DNA of 35,624 nt from Catajapyx aquilonaris (GCA_000934665.2 KZ539044.1:1-35624), one strand, 5' to 3'. Shown: positions 2,390-35,138, numbered from the stretch's first letter. The notes: generated by a model from the letters alone, not told the origin. Numbers and translations: made by a program.

Positions 2390-2490
2390 CTGCAACAAAA
2401 CAAGGCTCTAGCTGTTATGCGGCAATCATCCTGACTTTTGCTTTAAAACTGGTCATCATAGATGCATGTGATTGCTCCATTACTGCCCAA

Positions 2491-2566
2491 GTCCTTGCCA
2501 GGAATCTAACCTGGGACCATGCATGTAACATACTAGCATGTGCTCTACCACTGAGCTACAAGAATC
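2491..2566 (-). pseudogene. Degenerate tRNA-like sequence (tRNA pseudogene or old SINE head) in a WDSUB1 intron
   Basis: Minus strand has TAGCTCAGTGGTAGAGCA (D arm, A box) and GGTTAGATTCC (mutated B box); anticodon arm irregular. Confidence 0.6.
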
Positions 2567-2720
2567 ACTGCAGTAGGAGCAAATCTACATGGCACATGTG
2601 TCTCCTACAAATATTATGTCAGGTGGTTGATATGGAACTGCAACTCGGCCTTCACTTCGAAACAACTCAAGGCACAATTTTTCATGTTCCATTACAAAAA
2701 GAGAAATAGTGCAATCTAAC

Positions 2721-2935
2721 CTTCCAGATGCGCACAGTTTTGTCCCCAGCTGCAGATGCTAGACGATCACCGGAAGGTGAAAAGCGTACACACATGACTG
2801 AAGCACCGTGTCCTTGTAGTGTGTTAAGGCACTGAAGACTGTGCTGAACCCCAAGGGTCACACACCACAGTTTGATGATGTGGTCGTTTCCGCATGTTGC
2901 AAGCAAGTAGCTTGTACACAGTGTACCTTCACCTT
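2721..2935 (-). CDS. WDSUB1: WDSUB1-like protein, coding exon 5 (EGEGTLCTSYLLATCGNDHIIKLW...GDKTVRIWK)
   Basis: cttacag acceptor, AAG|GTTAGA donor, 215 bp, phase 1 to 0; WD40 repeats resembling WDSUB1 'LASCGQDCQVKIW'. Confidence 0.9.
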
Positions 2936-3089
2936 CTGTAAGATTAATTACAAATAAGTCCTTACTGCATAAATGAAACATAATCCACTTAGTTTTGCAA
3001 TCATACCACTAAAATACAAAAATACAATCCACATGTACGCACAGTCAGACTGAGAACAAATCCATTTCACAGTGATTCCCTATACTAAC

Positions 3090-3292
3090 CACGGTTAGTG
3101 AGGGGCTTGGATGAAAAGTCACAACTTGTCACACCCAAGTCATGCACATTCTCTTCAGCCAAAAGGCACTTCCCATATCCGCAACCAACATCCCACAATT
3201 TCATCAGGCCTTGGCTACATGCTGTAACCATGCAATTGCTATCTGGCGTGAATGCCACAGCAAATATTGCACCCTCATGTCCCATGTATGTC
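3090..3292 (-). CDS. WDSUB1: WDSUB1-like protein, coding exon 4 (TYMGHEGAIFAVAF...VHDLGVTSCDFSSKP)
   Basis: tttgcag acceptor, G|GTTAGT donor, 203 bp, phase 2 to 1; HDLGVTSCDFSS matches the WDSUB1 motif HDLGITCCDFSS. Confidence 0.92.
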
Positions 3293-3366
3293 CTGCAAAT
3301 ACCCAATATTAGTGACATCCTTCTTTGTACTGCTGCTGCAATAATATGGTCTATGTCAATTCAAAC

Positions 3367-3835: not shown

Positions 3836-4124
3836 ATAATAATAATAATTCATACCCCGTTATCAGCCTATCGGCTCTTTAGGGGGGAAGTTTTGTTTTG
3901 CCTGGAGCTCTTTGCTTTCATTTTACTGCGCTTTTTGGGATAGGATAGGGACGGAAGGAAGCGGCTGTGGCCTATTAATTACGGAAGCAACTCCGGAATT
4001 TTCCTGGAAGGACCGTGGGAAACCACAGAAAACCACGGTCAGAGTTGCCGGCCCCGGGATTCGAACCCAGCACCTCCCGATTAGCAGTCGGACGCCTTAT
4101 CCACTATGCCAACCTGCTTCGGTA
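3836..4124 (-). mobile_element. tRNA-derived SINE, type A (Lm1-like head and middle domain, (ATT)n tail), full length
   Basis: 15-bp TSD ATTTGTAATGAATTA at 3821-3835 and 4125-4139; A and B boxes; middle domain GGTTTTCTGTGGTTTCCC...AGGCCACAGCCGCTTCCTTCC. Confidence 0.93.
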
Positions 4125-5670: not shown

Positions 5671-6030
5671 TACAAGAGGCACAGACTGTCCAAAATAATG
5701 TGATCAGTATAAGCAAATAGCATGTAAACTAGCTCTGCAGGAAGGCATGCTATTTTAAACAGGCAATGCCTTTTACTTGCCCAATGTTTTTAAATGAATG
5801 CGGTATATAATAATGTACAATGGCCATGGTTCAAAATTAATGGACGAAGTAAGGTATTACACAGAAAATATCTACACACTTAAGTGACTTTCATAGTAGT
5901 AGATGTATTGGCCAACACTGGGAGTTTCATATGCCATATCTATATCCATATCTAATAAGCCTCATGAACTTGATAAAGGCAAGTGGCATTTATGGAATGC
6001 CAATGGCCTTTGCAGGAATTCTATAGTTTT

Positions 6031-6367
6031 TTTGTTTTTCTTACGTTACCCCGTGATAAGGCTTAGCCTTTTTTAGGGGGGTGGGATACCACCATTTTCT
6101 CTCCGTTTAACTTCATACACCGGTGCAAGGAGTCTAGGATGTAGGGTAGGGGTAAGAATTTTGGGGAGGGAACATTGGTGCAAGTGCGATGTCGGTAAAG
6201 GGGTCATGTGCTGTCCCCCAGGAGGTTAGGTTGCCAGACACCTCCTTGGTGCAGGTCAGAGACCCTCCTGACGCAGGTGAAAGGAAAGTTCCCCAGGCGG
6301 GGATCGAACCTGGGGCCTTTCACTCAGCAAGCCGAGACGTTACCATCATGGCCACCACACCTCCCCC
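6031..6367 (-). mobile_element. tRNA-derived SINE, type B (different tRNA head, module X, stem-loop tail, A-rich end), full length
   Basis: 16-bp TSD GGAATTCTATAGTTTT at 6015-6030 and 6368-6383; A and B boxes; A-rich tail. Confidence 0.93.
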
Positions 6368-6879
6368 GGAATTCTATAGTTTTAATGTAGAGAAATATGT
6401 GGATTGTGTGTAGCATGTTCACTTTTCTCTCATGATAAAAAGTAAATATTTTCTAAAGCGGCAAAAACTAAAAATTTGGATGCTGTCAGATTTTTTATCT
6501 CTTACAAAAAAAAAATCCTGCATAATGACAGTTGACCTTGATCTCCCCATTTTCAGTATGGAGGGCTTCCTTCCAACCTAATCAATATTTCCCAGCCACA
6601 AATGAACTCAATGAGACTCTCTCTCTATTCCTGGTTTAAAATTTAATTGTCACTAACTGCGTAATTATGGGGGACCGCTCCCAGAATGACTAACTACTGC
6701 CATTCTAAGGAAGGCTGCGGTATGGTGTTGTTTCCTAGCCTCTGGAAAGTCCATGAAGTTTTTCCATGAAAATTACACATATTCAGACATAAGACACCAC
6801 CAGTCACAGCTGTAGGTGCATATTTGCAACAATTTTAATTTCAAAATATTTTAAATGACTAATGAGGCCATTGAAATGT

Positions 6880-7561
6880 AGTTTTTTTATTTTGTACTTT
6901 TTTTTAGATATACCCCGTGCTAGGGCCATAGGCCCTCTTAGGGGAGTGGATTACCACTATCGGTGCAGGGGACAGGGTAGGGATAGGGAGGGGGGGACAC
7001 TGGTGTATGTGCAATCGCAATGTCATCAAGTTGGGGGTCGTGTGCAGTCCCTCAGGGGGCCCGTTCACCAAGATGACCCCCTAGATCTGCCCTGCCAAGC
7101 AAGAATGCAGTAACTAACATTTTGGCGGTAAATGCTTTTTTGTGGAGCATGGTTGGCGCTTTCATTCTGCTTCATTCGGTCTTATTGCGGCCGTCCTCCA
7201 ATATGGCAGTGCCGAGATATTGCAGGCACAAAAAGTAGTATCCTTAGTGTCGTAAATGGAACATGCGAGAGAAATTCGTCATTTTCCGAAAATTTTCTTT
7301 TTGTTAGTTCCTGCGTTCTTGCTTGGCAGGGCAGAGATGCGGGTCAGAAAACCCCACTGACACCGCACCTCCTCCAGGGCAGGGAAAGGAAGGAAGTGGC
7401 TGTGGCCTATTTTATGGTACGATCCCGGAATTTTTCCTGGGGCAACCTTGGGAAACCACAGAAAACCAAGGTCAGGATCGCCGGCCTCCGGGATTCGAAC
7501 CCAGGATTTCCCGATTAGCAGTCGGACACCATATCCACTCCACCACTACTGCTTCGGTAGA
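6880..7561 (-). mobile_element. tRNA-derived SINE, type C (type A head and middle domain, module X, tail), interrupted by a MITE
   Basis: 12-bp TSD CCATTGAAATGT at 6868-6879 and 7562-7573; collinear with 29863-30282 once 7087-7338 is removed. Confidence 0.9.
7087..7334. mobile_element. 248-bp MITE with 4-bp TSD (Sola-like) inserted in a SINE
   Basis: 32-bp TIRs CTGCCCTGCCAAGCAAGAA(T/C)GCAG(T/G)AACTAAC; AGAT duplicated at 7083-7086 and 7335-7338; superfamily inferred from TSD length. Confidence 0.85.
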
Positions 7562-7847
7562 CCATTGAAATGTTAACAATCAACCCATTAGCAAGAGAAT
7601 TTTATCAGCTACCACCCAAACTGTCAGTCATACAGATTAGCCTCAGATGAGGCCTTGAATGCACTTTCAGCTCTTACACATCAATGACAAAATGTCAGCC
7701 TTTTTTTTGCAGACCTCTCCCCTGAAAACGATAAATTAGCAAAATATAGCCTGTCTTGAAGTAATTAATAATGACAGTGGTAGTCAAAATGGCCCATGCC
7801 ACAAAAGGATAAACATACATCTTGAGACTCAGCCTAGCAGTTTTTAA

Positions 7848-8646
7848 CCCTGGAATCATGACGTGCCTGAAAGTGATGTTAGCCGTGACGTGGGAGTTTT
7901 TAGGACCCCATGCCATATTTTTATTTTTATTAATTTTTATTATATAATACTTTTCAATACTGAAGCAGGTTGGTGTAGTGGTTAAGGAGGCCGACTGCTA
8001 ATCGGGAGGTCCTGGGTTCGATTCCCGGGGCGGGTGATCATGACCATGGTTCTCTGTGGTTTCCCATGGTCCCCCCAGGATAATTCCGGGGTCGCTTCCG
8101 TATAATAGGCCACAGGTGCTTCCTTCCTTCCCTATCGTTGGCCCCATCCACGTGTGAAAGTTTCAGAAAGAATTTGAGTGGTAAAATGGTAGTATCCCAC
8201 CCCCCTAATGGAGAGCTGATTCTCCCAATGGGGTCAAATAAATAAATAAAATGAAATGAAATGAAATAAAACTTTTAAATGTATTGACTACATGCAATCA
8301 TTCTTTGAGCAATGCCTAAAATGATCGCTAATTCAAAATAAACACACATGCACTTATTATTATATAAATTTTTTAAATGGCAACAGTTCATGTTTGTAGT
8401 GGAGAGTTTTCTTATTTATCCTAGTATTTATCTACATTTCGGACCTCACGAGAGCATGGGTCCAAAAACAATGACTTATCTACATTTTGGTAGGCGGGAA
8501 AATATATTATAAAACCCATGATCCATGAAATGAAGTCTATTAGAGGAACACGCGCCAGTTTCAGGTTATTATCCTTTCAAGGTCACTCATTGCGATGCAT
8601 TTTAATTCCTTGGGGTCCTCAAAGACCCCATGTCACAGTGCCAGTG
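7848..8646. mobile_element. piggyBac-like non-autonomous element containing a SINE
   Basis: TTAA on both sides; ends CCCTGG and CCAGTG; subterminal inverted motif GTGAC(G/A)TGGG...AGGACCCCA. Confidence 0.65.
7958..8270 (+). mobile_element. tRNA-derived SINE, type A variant with a type-B-like tail ending in (AAAT/GAAAT)n
   Basis: A box TGGTGTAGTGG, B box GGTTCGATTCC, Lm1-like middle domain; degenerate TSD ACTTTT(C/A)AA. Confidence 0.88.
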
Positions 8647-9008
8647 TTAAACAAATACTTCATGTGGTCTCTCCAATGCTACTAAACATCTGTATTTGTC
8701 AAGTGATGCAGAAATGGAATAATGGATTGGTTGGGGAGTGACCTGTAATGAGGCTTATTAGCACTGCCTGGGATGATTCACGGATACTCATCACGTTGCC
8801 ACTGTACAGGGAGAACACTGATGTTCATACCTCGCAATATAATTTCAACTTTAGCTTTTTAAAAATGTTACGCAACATCTGAGCAATTAGCTACGAACCA
8901 ATCTGGCACACCTTTTCCTTTTACCCACTTTTTCCGCCACATCACTTTACTAGCTCATAATAACCAGGCCAAGTCGACAGCAGTTCCTATAGGCTTTTTT
9001 TCCAATCA

Positions 9009-9295
9009 ATAATAATAATTCATACCCCGTTATCAGCCATCGGCTCTTTAGGGGGGAAGTTTGTTTTGTCTGGAACTCTTTGCTTTTCATTTTACTGCGC
9101 TCTTTGGGATAGGATAGGGACGGAAGGAAGCGGCATTGGCCTATTAATTACGAAGCAACTCCGGAATTTTCCTGGAAGGACCCTGGGAAACCACAGAAAA
9201 CCACGGTCAGAGTTGCCGGCCCTGGGATTCGAACCCAGGACCTCCCGATTAGCAGTCGGACGCCTTATCCACTATGCCAAACTGCTTTGGTACTC
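9009..9295 (-). mobile_element. tRNA-derived SINE, type A, full length
   Basis: Highly similar to 3836-4124; TSD TTTTTTCCAATCA at 8996-9008 and 9296-9308. Confidence 0.93.
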
Positions 9296-10409: not shown

Positions 10410-10590
10410 CAGTGACGTAGCCAGGATTCCAGTTCGGGGGCGGGGGCGCAATCGGGGGGGGGGGGGGNNNNNNNNNNNNNNNNNNNNNNNNNNNNNNNNN
10501 NNNNNNNNNNNNNNNNNNNNNNNNNNNNNNNNNNNNNNNNNNNNNNNNNNNNNNNNNNNNNNNNNNCCCCCCCCCCCGGCTACGTCACTG
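10410..10590. mobile_element. hAT-like element (inner, young) spanning an assembly gap; true length unknown
   Basis: Perfect 13-bp TIR CAGTGACGTAGCC; perfect 8-bp TSD GGTTATAC at 10402-10409 and 10591-10598. Confidence 0.88.
10468..10566. other. Assembly gap (run of N) between poly-G and poly-C tracts
   Basis: N characters in the sequence. Confidence 0.99.
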
Positions 10591-15263: not shown

Positions 15264-16163
15264 GAAGGGAGATTTAGCATGTTAGAAGAATGATATGCAG
15301 CCAAATATGATGACAGCTATTGCAAAAAAAAAAACCTTCCAACTACTGATGGTGCATAACGTACCGTAACCTTGGCATTTGCGTATGCTGTATTTTAATT
15401 GCTGCCAATCCGATATTTAGCGTGAAATTGGCTATAAAGATGTCATGCAAGGTAAATAATTAAGCTGTCGAGTGCACTGTGGAGTAAAATTTATGAAAGG
15501 CCAAATGGTGCAAGCAAGAGGTATTGAAAAACCAGTTTTATTAGCAGACCTCATCTAATTACAGATAAATTGCATAATAAATTCCTCAAGCTCGCTTAAA
15601 TTGAGATGCCATTTAGAGTCATATTTGGTTTCTTTGTCAAAACTGGTTGGAAGAGAGTGACAAAGAAACGAAATCAAAATAATAATTCCAATCTTCGTCA
15701 TTCTTTGTTTTCTCCAGCACATCGACTATAGATTTCGCACTTCACCACTATTGAAACCCTGCGTGATGCACTTTCTGTGGTACCTCCATCAGCATGACAT
15801 GAATGTACGGTCATGCATGTATAAGTCACATGTGAATGAATTGGCAAGATTGTTCCTGAGAATGTCATTATGCTATCAGGCACGTCCATTAGAAGCACTT
15901 CAGATTTACTCCTGAAGGTCAAGTGATGAACAGGCTACTCTATTATTTTGACATAACCTACTTTACTGCATCATTATTCATAAGTCATAAACTAGGGAAA
16001 CCTAGGGTTATTTCAGCTAAGTGGACATAATATGTAAATTCATCCATATTTTCCTCTTTTGACATATTCAATAATTTGTTGTTTTAAAAATTCTTACGGT
16101 ACCAGTATACGTCTGTCCTTTCACAGAGCTGAGTGAAGACCATTGTGCAGCATCGTATTTACA

Positions 16164-17039
16164 ATGATCCCAGTGAAATGGCCTGGACTAAAGGCTGGCA
16201 TGCTCCCAGCCGTGGGCCCACAACCCGTCATAGTGAAGGACAAGGAGAAAATCCCACGAGATGAATCCTTGTCCCCAAAGAAGAAAGCACCATACCCAGA
16301 AGACCGAGGAAGGTCCACTGTGAAGAAGAAGTTAGCTGACCATAACCGTGAAGGCAGCAGGAGCTTCTCCGATCCTTCCGGACGAAGATGGCCACCCTCT
16401 TCATCATCTCCAACATGTACCTCGCCTTCATCAGAATCCACAGACGAGCCAGACAGAACCCAATTCGAACGCAGCAACACGGTACAAGATCTAGTACGTA
16501 CCTTTGAGGACCTAACTGGTAAGAAGGCTAGCAGCACCAGTAGTAGCAGAAGTAGCAGTAGCAGCGGTCTCAATAAGCGAGGATCGTCCAATAACTGGCG
16601 ACGTCCCTGCAACCAGTATGGTGAAGGCATTCCGCTCTATGAGGCCATGCTGTCCGAGTTAAGACAAGCTGTAAGTCAACCTGAACAGGAAGCCACTGAG
16701 GTCACCCCACCTTCGGTCACCATCCAGCCTCCTGATGAGGCACATATGGATCAACGTGGGATACTTTCCTACCAGCAAAGCCCGTGCTATCCGGTGCTAA
16801 TGAATGAACTGGAAGGCATACTGGAGGAGTGGGACCATGGTACCACCGAAGAAGAAACAGAGCCACCTATTAAGTTGCCCAGGTTAAACAGGGTCATTCT
16901 GACCGGTACTGCTTTGTTGGTTCCACGACCTTTCTTAGGCCCATATACTCAAATGCAACTTGGCAGACGTTTTAGTACGGGAAGTCTGAAACAATCTAGG
17001 CGTACATGGCGTCCGTATGACAAACAGACAGCATGTTGA
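16164..17039 (+). CDS. Uncharacterised 291-aa Ser/Pro/Glu-rich, probably disordered protein in a single coding exon
   Basis: Longest ORF in the window, visibly more GC-rich than its flanks; strong acceptor gtctgtcctttcacag at 16126; in-frame stop before the ATG (ACAATG); downstream AATAAA signals; no transposon domain recognised. Confidence 0.7.
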   Translation: MIPVKWPGLKAGMLPAVGPQPVIVKDKEKIPRDESLSPKKKAPYPEDRGRSTVKKKLADHNREGSRSFSDPSGRRWPPSSSSPTCTSPSSESTDEPDRTQFERSNTVQDLVRTFEDLTGKKASSTSSSRSSSSSGLNKRGSSNNWRRPCNQYGEGIPLYEAMLSELRQAVSQPEQEATEVTPPSVTIQPPDEAHMDQRGILSYQQSPCYPVLMNELEGILEEWDHGTTEEETEPPIKLPRLNRVILTGTALLVPRPFLGPYTQMQLGRRFSTGSLKQSRRTWRPYDKQTAC

Positions 17040-29708: not shown

Positions 29709-30566
29709 CACTGTACTTCCGATTATCCGGGCTAATGACTGAACGGGTGTCGCCGGATATTCGGAAAACACGGATAATCGGAAAATTACCATATACCGTA
29801 GACACCGTAAAAATGAGCTATTCGCGGGTTTTTAATGTGCTCCTGTATAGATAGTATGCTTCTACCGAAGCAGCAGTAGCTGAGGGGATTTGGTATCCGG
29901 CTGCAAATCGGGAGGTCCAGGGATCAAATCCCCAGGCCGGCAACTCTGACCGTGGTTTTCTGTGGTTTCCCACGGTCACCCCCAGGTGAATACCGGAGTT
30001 GTTTCCTAATCGTAGGCCACAGCCGCTTCCTGCCTTCCCTATCCCTGCCCCGTACTGGAGGAGGTGCGGCGTTTGTGGGAGGCCTCTTACCCGCACCTAG
30101 AGGGTCGTCTTTCAACCTAGCCCTCTGGGGGACTGCACACGGCCTCCGCCATGAGACATTGCACTTGCACCACTGTCCCCCCCTCCATTCCAGCACCGGA
30201 GAGTTAGAAAATGGTAGAAAAGACCTCCCCCCTACATAAGCCAGAAGGCTTCAAGGGTGTAATTAAAAAAAAAAAGAGAGAGAGATAGTATGCTTCTTGG
30301 TTGAATAATAAAACTTCCCATAGATTTTTACTTTGTCTTCTAGAAAAAGGCTGTTACGAGTATGTTTCTTCGTTGGCGAGACATATTGACAGTAGGTCTT
30401 TTCGTCCCACTGCTATAGTTACTGCCAACTTATTAATTTGCACTGGTACTGCTTAGTTAGCGATATATCTATAGCAGTGGGGCGAAAATTCGACCCATTT
30501 TTTCGGACTTTAATTTAAACATTTATTTTTTGGCGGTGCACGGATTATCCGCACCAGGATAATCTG
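29709..30566. mobile_element. Degenerate Tc1/mariner-type MITE hosting a SINE
   Basis: TA flanks; CGATTATCCG and CGGATAATCG motifs clustered at both ends. Confidence 0.45.
29863..30282 (+). mobile_element. tRNA-derived SINE, type C, full length
   Basis: 14-bp TSD AGATAGTATGCTTC at 29849-29862 and 30283-30296; poly-A tail; diverged A and B boxes. Confidence 0.93.
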
Positions 30567-33026: not shown

Positions 33027-33440
33027 TTTTTTATTTTTTAATTACACCCTTGAAGCCTTCAGGCTTATGTAGGGGGGAGGTTTTTCGACCATTTTCTATC
33101 TCTCCGGTGCCAGGATGGAGGGGGGGACAGTGGTGCAAGTGCAATGTCTCATGGCGGAGGCCGTGTGCAGTCCCCCAGAGGGCTAGGTTGAAAGACGACC
33201 CTCTAGGTGCGGGTAAGAGACCTCCCACAAACGCCGCACCTCCTCCAGTATGGGACATGGATAGGAAAGGTAGGAAGCGGCTGTGGCCTACGATTAGGAA
33301 ACAACTCCGGTATTCACCTGGGGGTGACCGTGGGAAACCACAGAAAACCACGGTCAGAGTTGCCGGCCTGGGGATTTGATCCCTGGACCTCCCGATTTGC
33401 AGCCGGATACCAAATCCCCTCAGCTACTGCTGCTTCGGTT
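33027..33440 (-). mobile_element. tRNA-derived SINE, type C, full length; near-identical inverted copy of 29863-30282
   Basis: 16-bp TSD ATTTGTGACAGATTTC at 33011-33026 and 33441-33456. Confidence 0.93.
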
Positions 33441-33947: not shown

Positions 33948-34614
33948 CCCTTTGATGACGAAGTTTTTGAAGGATTGCATTACCCCAGGGCCTGAGTTTT
34001 TTCCCCCCTTTTCCGGAAATTTTATGACCTCGCCGATTTTCTTCAAATTCGGTGCATTGGTAGCCCACACCAAGGGATGAAAAACGCACCTATAGTTACC
34101 TGATCTAAATGACCTCGTGACCCAATTTTGAGGGGGGCAGAGGTCAAATCATAAAATTTCGACCTCACCGGATTTTCTTCAAATTCGGTGCATTGGTAGC
34201 CCACACCAAGGGATGAAAAACGCACCTATAGTTGCCTGATCAAAATGACCTCGTGACCCAATTCTGAGGAGGGCAGAGGTCAAATTTCGACCTCACCGAT
34301 TTTCTTGAAATTCGGGGGTTACACACTTACATTTTTTGCGTACACGTACTACCTGCCTTAACTGCTAATCGGGAGGTCCTGGGTTCGAATCCCGGAGGCC
34401 GGCGACCCTGACCATGGTTTTCTGTGGTTTACCATGGTCCTTGCAGGATAATTCCGGGGTCGTTACCGTAATATAGGCCACAGCCGCCTCCTTCCTTCCC
34501 TTTCCCTGCTTCATTCCGGTGATGAGAAAAATAGTAAAAAATGGAAGAGTTCCAGACAAAAAAATTGGGAGAAATCCCCCTAGGAAAGCCCGTAGGCTGA
34601 TAATGGAGTATCAA

Positions 34615-34692
<78 letters not shown>

Positions 34693-35138
34693 CGCCTTAG
34701 TGAATCATAAGGGAGACTTTGCAAGTACCAGTCACAAACTTTCTTGAAATTCGGCGCATTGACATATGTCCCCTCCAATATGGGTCACAGGGTCATTTCG
34801 AGCAGGGAACTATAGGTGCGTTTGTCATACCTTGGTGTGGGCTACCAATGGACCGAATTTGAAGAAAATCGGCGAGGTCGGAATTTTATGATTTGACCTC
34901 TGCCCCCCTCAAAATTGGGTCACGAGGTCATTTTTATCAGGTCACTATAGGTGCGTCTTTCATCCCTTGGGGTGGGCTACCAATGCACCGAATTTCAAGA
35001 AAATCGGTGAGGTTGAAATTTTTTGCGTTGAAAAATGACCCAAGTTGGCAGGGCAAATCTCCGGACATCATATGATGTCCGTAGGCCCTCCAGCAATGCA
35101 AGCTCGGACATCATATGATGGCCGTAGGCACCAAAGGG
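33948..35138. mobile_element. piggyBac-like non-autonomous element with ~130-bp tandem units arranged as inverted arms
   Basis: TTAA flanks; TIR CCCTTTG(A/G)TG; units start at 34026, 34161 and 34289, with inverted copies at ~34790-35015. Confidence 0.8.
34361..34688 (+). mobile_element. tRNA-derived SINE, type A, 5'-truncated, with expanded (ATT)n tail
   Basis: B box GGTTCGAATCC, Lm1-like middle domain; 11-bp TSD TACC(T/C)GCCTTA at 34350-34360 and 34689-34699. Confidence 0.9.

Follow-up and report, generated by a model that had tools for sequence, protein, structure and literature searches.

A candidate structured body module shared by two tRNA-derived SINE families of Catajapyx aquilonaris

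Introduction

What the central modules of short interspersed elements (SINEs) do, and why they are kept and exchanged, is an open question in the field, as stated in section 13 of PMC4824008 and in passages of PMC4758252. Candidate roles named in that section and in parts of PMC5804259 include RNA stability, transcription, recombination hotspots, and host benefit. The same question is raised by a 35,624-nt stretch of DNA from Catajapyx aquilonaris (GCA_000934665.2 KZ539044.1:1-35624; hereafter, the window), where a ~130-nt segment, module X, recurs in the bodies of several SINEs. A preliminary description, made from the sequence alone, had taken module X to be a selected tertiary RNA fold. We asked which of the proposed pairings are preserved while the sequence changes, and what they may serve. 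The reading that we favor, with slightly better than even confidence, is that module X constitutes a structured domain, ~130 nt long, in the SINE body, with pairings that are selected for propagation, and that it is exchanged between SINE families.

Module X is carried by SINEs with different heads

The DNA of the window is eukaryotic and animal-like, with 40% G+C, one 99-N gap, and minus-strand WD40 exons. A blastn search with one of its SINEs, copy A, as a query recovered a tRNA-derived SINE family. Copy A (29864..30282, plus strand) consists of a tRNA-related head, a V-like body, module X, a tail hairpin, and an A-rich/GA tail; its 15-bp target duplication, AGATAGTATGCTTCT, lies at 29849-29863 and is repeated after the tail. 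Copy B (33027..33440, minus strand), with the 16-bp target duplication ATTTGTGACAGATTTC at both flanks, is a near-identical full copy, and because the blastn identity of A and B is 96.7%, the two were counted as one lineage. Copy D (6880..7561, minus strand; 12-bp target duplication CCATTGAAATGT) has the same head type as copy A, is older than copies A and B, and is interrupted by a miniature inverted-repeat transposable element (MITE). Copy C (6031..6367, minus strand; 16-bp target duplication GGAATTCTATAGTTTT) begins with another tRNA-related head, directly followed by module X and then by a longer spacer, a tail hairpin, and an A-rich tail. A second head of the C type, at positions 1-97, is truncated by the window start.

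In line with tRNA-derived SINEs, target duplications of 12-16 bp surround all four module-bearing copies, and the tails consist of A-rich sequence, (ATT)n, or (AAAT)n. The tRNA relationship of the heads is clearest in shorter relatives, where Rfam tRNA matches were found at 4046-4117 (35.6 bits; also called as a tRNA by ARAGORN) and at 9222-9279 (38.7 bits); the head of copy D scores 24.3 bits (E 0.029), and that of copy A merely 15.4 bits. Four such short relatives (~3850-4105 and 9010-9273, minus strand; 7975-8240 and 34362-34690, plus strand) have the head, the V-like body, and the tail in common with copy A. Their lack of module X shows that the module is an optional unit.

In copy A, module X occupies 30055..30186 on the plus strand. 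It comprises a closing helix H0 (30057-30061/30182-30186), an outer H1 (30063-30069/30091-30097) with the H1 loop at 30076-30085, H2 (30099-30105/30120-30126), and H3 (30127-30133/30175-30181), which encloses both the segment complementary to the H1 loop (the loop target, 30141-30147) and a conserved motif, GACATTGCACTTGCACCA (30155-30172). Module X of copy B (33117..33248, minus strand) differs from that of copy A by a single C>T change in the H1 loop, which creates a G.U pair in the loop-target helix. In copy C (6164..6276, minus strand), H0 and outer H1 lack their 5' arms, and the remaining elements are inner H1 (6268-6272/6255-6259), H2 (6240-6246/6220-6226), H3 (6212-6219/6167-6174), and the loop target (6201-6205). 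Module X of copy D is split by the MITE, which was inserted between H1 and H2, just 5' of H2, and is not module sequence: the 5' part (7339..7377, minus strand) carries the H0 5' arm and all of H1 as far as the insertion, and the 3' part (6987..7086, minus strand) carries H2, H3, the loop target, and the motif with a 6-nt duplication. The preliminary description had the motif, GACATTGC...TGCAC, follow the pairings; it actually lies inside H3.

An nhmmer profile built from the four modules matched these four copies only, and throughout the window module X was found by nhmmer and blastn inside SINEs only. The four copies thus lie essentially where they had been described, with A and B forming one of three lineages, and the target duplications and two head types bear out a SINE-borne module common to diverged subfamilies. 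The module is always placed between the head (with the V-like hairpin, where present) and a LINE-type (long interspersed element) 3' tail hairpin, 50-130 nt upstream of the latter. While the heads of A, B, and D do not align with that of C, their modules are 74-75% identical, i.e., the same body domain is joined to unrelated heads. Module X thus behaves as a movable unit exchanged between two SINE families with different tRNA heads. A motif resembling CCCTATCCCT.CCC is seen upstream of the module in copy A (30036-30052) and downstream of it in copies D (6960-6990) and C (6120-6160), on both sides in none, and is a candidate for an old insertion mark or a recombination site.

The constant order of module and tail can be accounted for in another way: module X could be a part of the 3' untranslated region (UTR) of the partner LINE, in which case the beneficiary of its structure would be the LINE, for instance through the stability of its RNA or through recognition by the reverse transcriptase. 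Whether a SINE carries module X with the tail or the tail alone would then depend on how much of the LINE 3' end it had copied, the longer stretches including both. Wherever module X is present, the shared LINE-type tail hairpin is found downstream of it, short relatives keep the tail only, and a further stretch (GCACCG... and AAAATGGT...) joins module and tail in copies A, C, and D. Passages of PMC4758252 also describe LINE-derived SINE tails as common and modules as swapped by template switching. However, the module-tail spacer varies from ~20 to ~75 nt and can be aligned only in patches, and the short relatives are themselves abundant, judging by contig depth (see below), so recognition does not require the module. 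The window offered no LINE for comparison, Pfam searches with 14 of its 32 open reading frames (ORFs) of at least 90 amino acids having returned WD40 only, and the module was seen inside SINEs only. We regard a LINE origin as unlikely.

Both families are abundant

Copy A is present in five public DNA runs from one organism and two studies (share of words 0.50-0.71 in the run search). Contigs of four runs (X1-X4) were placed on positions 6000-7600, which include copies C and D, at 80% likeness, giving 5336 (X1), 4846 (X2), 4408 (X3), and 230 (X4) contig records. The summed word depth of the unique DNA between the two SINEs (~25 in X1) is exceeded 10^3-10^4-fold over the SINE parts, a measure that, like the contig records, is not a copy number. 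The C family has the highest summed depth. Many contigs join across the MITE, which means that MITE-free D-like copies exist, and we conclude that the C and D families are both high-copy. The host SINE family appears to have been active recently.

The same contigs separate family states from private ones. In the H1/H2 stretch of copy C, the deepest region, none of the variants listed reaches 10% of depth, and the H1 and H2 arms of this copy are therefore the family consensus rather than the result of decay. The substitution 6188 G>A, by contrast, accounts for 73,617 of 73,805 depth in X1; since it dominates, the family motif is GACATTGCAC, as in copy A, and GACATC is private to copy C, contrary to the GACAT(T/C) alternation described at first. 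Similarly, 6215 C>T makes up 73-80% of depth in all four runs, and, in copy D, 7006 T>C makes up 4,369 of 4,445 depth, while a 6-nt stretch at 7011 is skipped in about one-third of depth.

The summed depth of copy C in X1 falls about 4.5-fold, from ~890,000 (6216-6269) to ~197,000 (6162-6215), with H1, H2, and the H3 5' arm on the deeper side and the 3' half of the module on the other. Either subfamilies with another 3' half or a less uniform sequence could produce this drop.

Compensatory changes in the helices

The full model, evaluated on alignment A3 of the four copies, contains 43 pairs and 154 cells (a pair in one copy each), of which 93.5% are paired. MAFFT alignments A2 and A3 misplace the inner-H1 5' arm of copy C; these cells were treated as gaps, and the arm was read directly. 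Four pairs are changed on both sides, two in H2 and two in the loop-target helix. Shuffled alignments gave 2.0+-0.9 double-changed pairs; four were reached in 19 of 500 shuffles, and the observed covariation score in none of the 500.

H2 provides the clearest case. As the preliminary description had it, its arms occur in three versions, AGAGGGT/GCCCTCT, AGGAGGT/ACCTCCT, and AGGGGGT/GCCCCCT; all 28 cells are paired, two of the seven pairs are compensatory, and one pair changes from U.G to U-A. A minor contig variant, AGGGGGG/CCCCCCT, read from the letters at the joint 7059>7335, converts the U.G pair to G-C (depth 329 in X2, 228 in X3, and 169 in X4). The covariation of H2 is solid.

The other helices vary less. 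H3 is paired in 96.4% of cells, with no compensatory pair among the four copies; both arm versions reported for it, GGGGGAC/GTCCCCC and GGGGGACA/TGTTCCCT, are present. Since 6215 C>T dominates depth, the H3 arm of the C-family consensus is GGGGAACA, which pairs perfectly with TGTTCCCT and has A-U where A and B have G-C. Inner H1 is 85.2% paired when four outer-H1 pairs are included, and has no compensatory pair among the copies; the reported GTCAG/CTGAC is found in C and D, and D-like contig variants have GTTAG/CTAAC (depth 451 and 353) and GTTAG/CTGAC (depth 142). Thus, H3 and inner H1 gain one compensatory change each from the contigs. Outer H1, GGTGCGG/CCGCACC, is completely paired and invariant except for one G.U in D (CCGCATC), so the preliminary description of this helix holds for A and B but not for C, where the 5' arm is missing. 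H0 (GGAGG/CCTCC), a closing helix that we add here, is 93.8% paired without compensatory pairs, four of its five pairs being invariant and one having an unpaired cell. With it, A, B, and D can be drawn as a four-way junction with adjacent arms.

The H1 loop is complementary to a segment inside H3

The H1 loop can form 7 bp with the H3 interior in copy A, 7 bp (one of them G.U) in B, 6 bp in D, and 5 bp in C, and when all sequence 3' of H1 is considered, its best partner is the same aligned site in all four copies. The loop-target helix is 92.6% paired; two of its seven pairs are compensatory, two are changed on one side, and two have an unpaired cell. The complementarity that had been described is therefore present at one site, with two compensatory pairs. 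These pairs correspond to two events between two lineages, as the states of C and D match. Among the 57 stems of at least 5 bp that are possible in copy A, the loop-target helix ranks first (four) and H2 second (three) by the number of compensatory cells in C and D. As copy B is likely dead, its U.G probably reflects a change of no consequence.

Predicted duplex energies, compared with those obtained when loop or target was shuffled, differ between the copies. The duplex of A (-16.7 kcal/mol) was equalled by a fraction of 0.004-0.011 of shuffles, that of B (-14.0 kcal/mol) by 0.02-0.04, that of D (-10.2 kcal/mol) by 0.10-0.14, and that of C (-9.3 kcal/mol) by 0.14-0.20. Taken alone, the complementarity is thus significant only in A and B (p 0.004-0.04; p 0.10-0.20 for C and D). 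We consider the covariation of this pairing suggestive and a contact better than chance plausible. A pseudoknot, the topology originally proposed, is not established by these models: complementarity exceeds chance, but C and D are not significant alone, and a nested alternative is predicted (see below).

Folding predictions and points against a selected structure

A number of observations weigh against the view that module X is a domain with selected pairings. Slid controls, in which 45-54% of cells were paired with 0-2 double-changed pairs, are biased, as the tested structure was read from the same sequences. The comparison includes three independent lineages from a single organism, as the preliminary description had cautioned in calling the sample small, and C and D agree in state not only at the two compensatory loop-target pairs but also at one pair of H2, which leaves few separate events. 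Not every helix is intact: the in-register inner-H1 arms of A and B, GTTTG/CTTAC, leave two of five pairs unpaired; H3 of D, GAGGGAC/GTCCCCC, has one A.C mismatch; and a 17-nt stretch of D that holds the H0 and outer-H1 5' arms is missing from copy C. The background is rich in G/C runs, and 8 of the 55 unproposed stems of copy A also have at least one compensatory cell, in line with the earlier warning that such runs inflate chance pairing.

Thermodynamic predictions point in the same direction. Minimum free energy (MFE) z-scores, computed against 500 dinucleotide shuffles for each copy, are weak (-2.35, -1.71, -1.28, and +0.11), and in each of the four copies the antisense strand is predicted to be the more stable one. 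RNAalifold, given the four sequences, predicts the loop-target helix as a nested stem around H2, with neither H1 nor H3. In partition-function calculations on full-length sequences, H0, outer H1, H2, and H3 reach 0.6-1.0 in A and B only; for C, the prediction is limited to H2 (0.65) and a nested loop-target stem (0.56), and in D nothing exceeds 0.11. A run of four T residues on the sense strand (29956-29959), upstream of the module, could stop RNA polymerase III (Pol III). No RNA run is among the listed runs that contain copy A, and the transcript is putative. Given that C lacks two 5' arms and that the junction is predicted in A and B only, a selected tertiary fold, as stated in the preliminary description, is premature. 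As to the T run, the next letters after it are CT, and passages of PMC4758252 report a T run followed by CT as a context that favors Pol III read-through.

If these points were decisive, module X would have no selected fold at all: its stems would be chance products of G/C runs, with the double changes due to coincidence or to correction of quasi-palindromes at the DNA level, and the module would simply be inherited SINE body sequence. The near-shuffle z-scores of three of the four copies, the large number of possible stems, the families with absent or broken helices, and the 19 of 500 shuffles that match the covarying-pair count all speak for this. Yet H2 is fully paired in four of four copies and in the AGGGGGG/CCCCCCT variant, although three of its seven pairs change state. 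The U.G pairs in H2 and H3 suit RNA pairing rather than correction of a DNA palindrome, the H1 and H2 arms of C are a family consensus, and the proposed helices rank first and second among 57. The absence of any selected fold seems to us improbable.

Comparison with known structured RNAs and SINE modules

A search of the whole window against Rfam 15 at the gathering threshold gave three tRNA matches only, none of them in module X, and ARAGORN called no tRNA there. When matches with E up to 10 were considered for 29850-30300 and 6000-7600, no family (tRNA, 5S, 7SL/signal recognition particle (SRP), Y, vault, small nuclear RNAs, ribozymes, or exonuclease-resistant RNAs) was found in the module, in agreement with the preliminary description, which could assign it to no known ribozyme class and had asked for such a search. 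The sole overlap is mir-9791 on the opposite strand in 29850-30300, with 15.3 bits against a cut-off of 70. Exact 9-14 nt motifs of the module were absent from the full-text literature searched and from the supplement text of PMC5804259, PMC9191728, PMC4758252, and PMC11481361 (one file each of PMC4758252 and PMC9191728 not being covered), and inspection by eye did not find the module among the 16 consensus sequences of PMC5804259 Fig. S1 or in the four termite SINEs of PMC9191728 Fig. S4; searches of both kinds are blind to distant homology. Among the 15 papers listed of 926 matched in the literature, none describes a SINE pseudoknot, and the literature on crustacean SINEs yielded no usable match. 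All 56 matches to the conserved 18-nt motif in metagenome (34 loci), viral (13), and genome or prokaryote contigs (9) were due to chance, with alignments of at most 26 nt. Likewise, a translated search for SINE copies elsewhere gave no match for the sense ORF. One protein matched the antisense ORF of copy B and was rejected as a tandem-repeat artefact unrelated to the SINE; its repeat is presumably adapter-like. Pending comparison with Dfam, Repbase, and SINEBase, we take module X as a candidate addition to the known SINE body or central modules.

Known SINE central domains (CORE, V, Deu, Ceph, Nin-DC, Inv, Pln, Snail, Meta, and MESC) are likewise body segments combined with varied heads and tails, but are conserved across species, classes, or phyla, whereas module X has been seen in a single organism. 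Vhc of the V-SINEs, in passages of PMC4758252, is also a body subdomain with a preserved predicted hairpin in otherwise unrelated invertebrate SINEs; it is, however, a single hairpin of 37-40 nt, while module X, at ~130 nt, has three to four helices and may add a pairing between a loop and a helix interior. The LINE-recognized 3' stem-loops of stringent SINE/LINE pairs are covarying hairpins kept for retrotransposition. The tail hairpins of the SINEs studied here behave likewise, but module X lies upstream and is dispensable for shorter relatives.

The SRP Alu domain of Alu and B1 SINEs, bound by SRP9/14, consists of two neighboring hairpins with paired loops in a compact fold that gives the SINE access to the LINE machinery. 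By analogy, module X might be a new autonomously folding RNA domain, with a cloverleaf-like junction and kissing arms 1 and 3 (covarying, 5-7 bp), that docks the transcript onto a host or LINE protein or the ribosome and was acquired for this reason by SINEs with different tRNA heads. If this were true, tRNA-derived SINEs would have a functional equivalent of the SRP Alu domain, and a SINE central domain would gain its first mechanistic role. A loop-loop contact of the SRP Alu kind would draw on two compensatory pairs at one site in four of four copies, with C and D at p 0.10-0.20 and a nested alternative predicted. The two domains also differ: the SRP Alu domain has a three-way junction, whereas module X has a four-way one, is part of a tRNA-derived SINE, and matches neither SRP sequence nor the SRP covariance model, so that 7SL ancestry is not indicated. 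The tRNA cloverleaf, with its D-loop/T-loop elbow, has the same topology, in which three arms follow a closing helix and the first arm touches the third; yet module X is twice the size of a tRNA, its arm lengths are not tRNA-like, and no Rfam tRNA match covers it. We consider the docking domain quite unlikely.

A cloverleaf-like appearance could also have arisen by capture of a cellular small RNA or of a second retroposed unit in a SINE master copy. The GGAGG/CCTCC ends, which pair around three hairpins in A, B, and D, give the module a self-contained look, and the CCCTATCCCT.CCC-like motif is upstream of it in A and downstream in D and C. However, this motif never flanks both sides, the invariant H0 lends no covariation support, and Rfam models of tRNA, 5S, Y, vault, small nuclear RNAs, and 7SL find nothing in the module at E up to 10, making such a capture very improbable. 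A self-cleaving ribozyme or an exonuclease-resistant RNA, both put forward in the preliminary description, is hardly credible: the possible pseudoknotted topology is the sole point in favor, whereas the Rfam 15 ribozyme and exonuclease-resistant RNA models give no match at E up to 10, the helix order is unlike the nested double pseudoknot of hepatitis delta virus (HDV)-like ribozymes, and no conserved unpaired junctions resembling a catalytic core are evident.

What the pairings may serve

Returning to a structured body domain selected for propagation, we envisage that in the Pol III transcript module X would form a set of hairpins, among which H2 is the most certain and H3 and apical H1 are likely. 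The G-rich H1 loop would probably pair with C-rich sequence enclosed by H3, be it through kissing or by forming a nested stem in place of the other helices. The pairings would persist because only master copies whose RNA folds in this way continue to yield progeny, and in this sense the structure would serve the propagation of the SINE itself. Its role might be to stabilize or compact the RNA and to present the 3' tail to the partner LINE machinery, with or without a protein partner. Exchange of the module between families could proceed by recombination or template switching, a route discussed in passages of PMC4758252.

If the loop-to-interior contact is real, module X would join the few SINE bodies with tertiary structure that are not derived from 7SL; if it is not, module X would be an ordinary SINE module with a well-supported hairpin.

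Other covarying hairpins of the SINEs

Module X is not the only site of paired changes in these elements. A hairpin, CCGTGG...CCACGG, resembling V/Vhc lies in the body of copy A upstream of the module (29950..29975, plus strand); the two differ in sequence and stand side by side in the same element. Seven copies of this 26-nt hairpin were found, at 29950-29975, 33328-33353, 4013-4038, 9181-9206, 8044-8069, 34412-34437, and 7446-7471, with the stem variants CCGTGG/CCACGG, CCATGG/CCATGG, and CCTTGG/CCAAGG. One pair covaries: it is G-C in three intact copies and in 9181-9206 (where there is a mismatch elsewhere in the stem), A-U in two copies, and U-A in one. The contigs concur: at positions 7448 and 7469, which pair with each other, the variant shares match (68% and 62%). 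The loop contains a T4 run followed by CT; according to passages of Matetovici et al. 2016 (PMC4758252), the V/Vhc stem-loop is predicted to be conserved in invertebrate SINEs, and internal T runs followed by C or CT are noted there as well. By eye, CCGTGGTTTTCT...GTTTCCCAC is like the V domains of Thedo, Empe, Racla, and Talub, though shorter here.

The tail hairpin of copy A, CCCC..AAGCC/GGCTT..GGG (30230..30258, plus strand), has counterparts throughout. The tails were compared at 30215-30265, 33040-33090, 6035-6090, 6912-6965, 3845-3900, 9005-9060, 34565-34620, and 8190-8245, and all eight have an apical stem between CCCC and GGGG. Five different apical stems occur: AAGCC/GGCTT, AAGGC/GCCTT, AGGGCC/GGCCCT, AGCC/GGCT, and GGAGA/TCTCC. 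We take this hairpin to be of the usual 3' stem-loop type recognized by the partner LINE reverse transcriptase. The tail of the crayfish SINE Procla (PMC5804259 Fig. S1) looks similar by eye.

Covariation in the V-like hairpin and in the tail is as clear as that in module X, and hairpins thus evolve in a compensatory way throughout the master copies of the family. Module X is best read as one more structured SINE domain kept by selection on master copies, larger and more complex than the other hairpins. Compensatory change at three sites, together with the abundance and apparent recent activity of the elements, makes these SINEs a convenient system for testing whether RNA structure or primary sequence is selected.

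Other features of the window

The MITE in copy D (7087..7338, without assigned strand) is 252 bp long, has 17-bp terminal inverted repeats, and, in these coordinates, includes one copy of its 4-bp duplication (AGAT on the plus strand). Its contig depth is ~10-20 times that of unique DNA, and its internal 184 nt are skipped by one contig per run. The top tRNA match of the window (2490-2565, minus strand; 40.9 bits) lies inside or beside the WD40 gene and looks like the head of another, unrelated tRNA-derived repeat. WD40-repeat exons were found at 2682-3008 and 3085-3360 (minus strand), with Pfam E values of 1.4e-16 and 2.2e-9. A 300-amino-acid ORF at 16137-17036 (plus strand) gave no family, no homologue, and no Atlas lead above 0.85. 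The assembly gap of 99 N is at 10468-10566. Two arrays of a ~135-bp repeat, with 1.9 copies each, occupy 34026-34285 and 34770-35022, separated by DNA that includes a long (ATT)n SINE tail.

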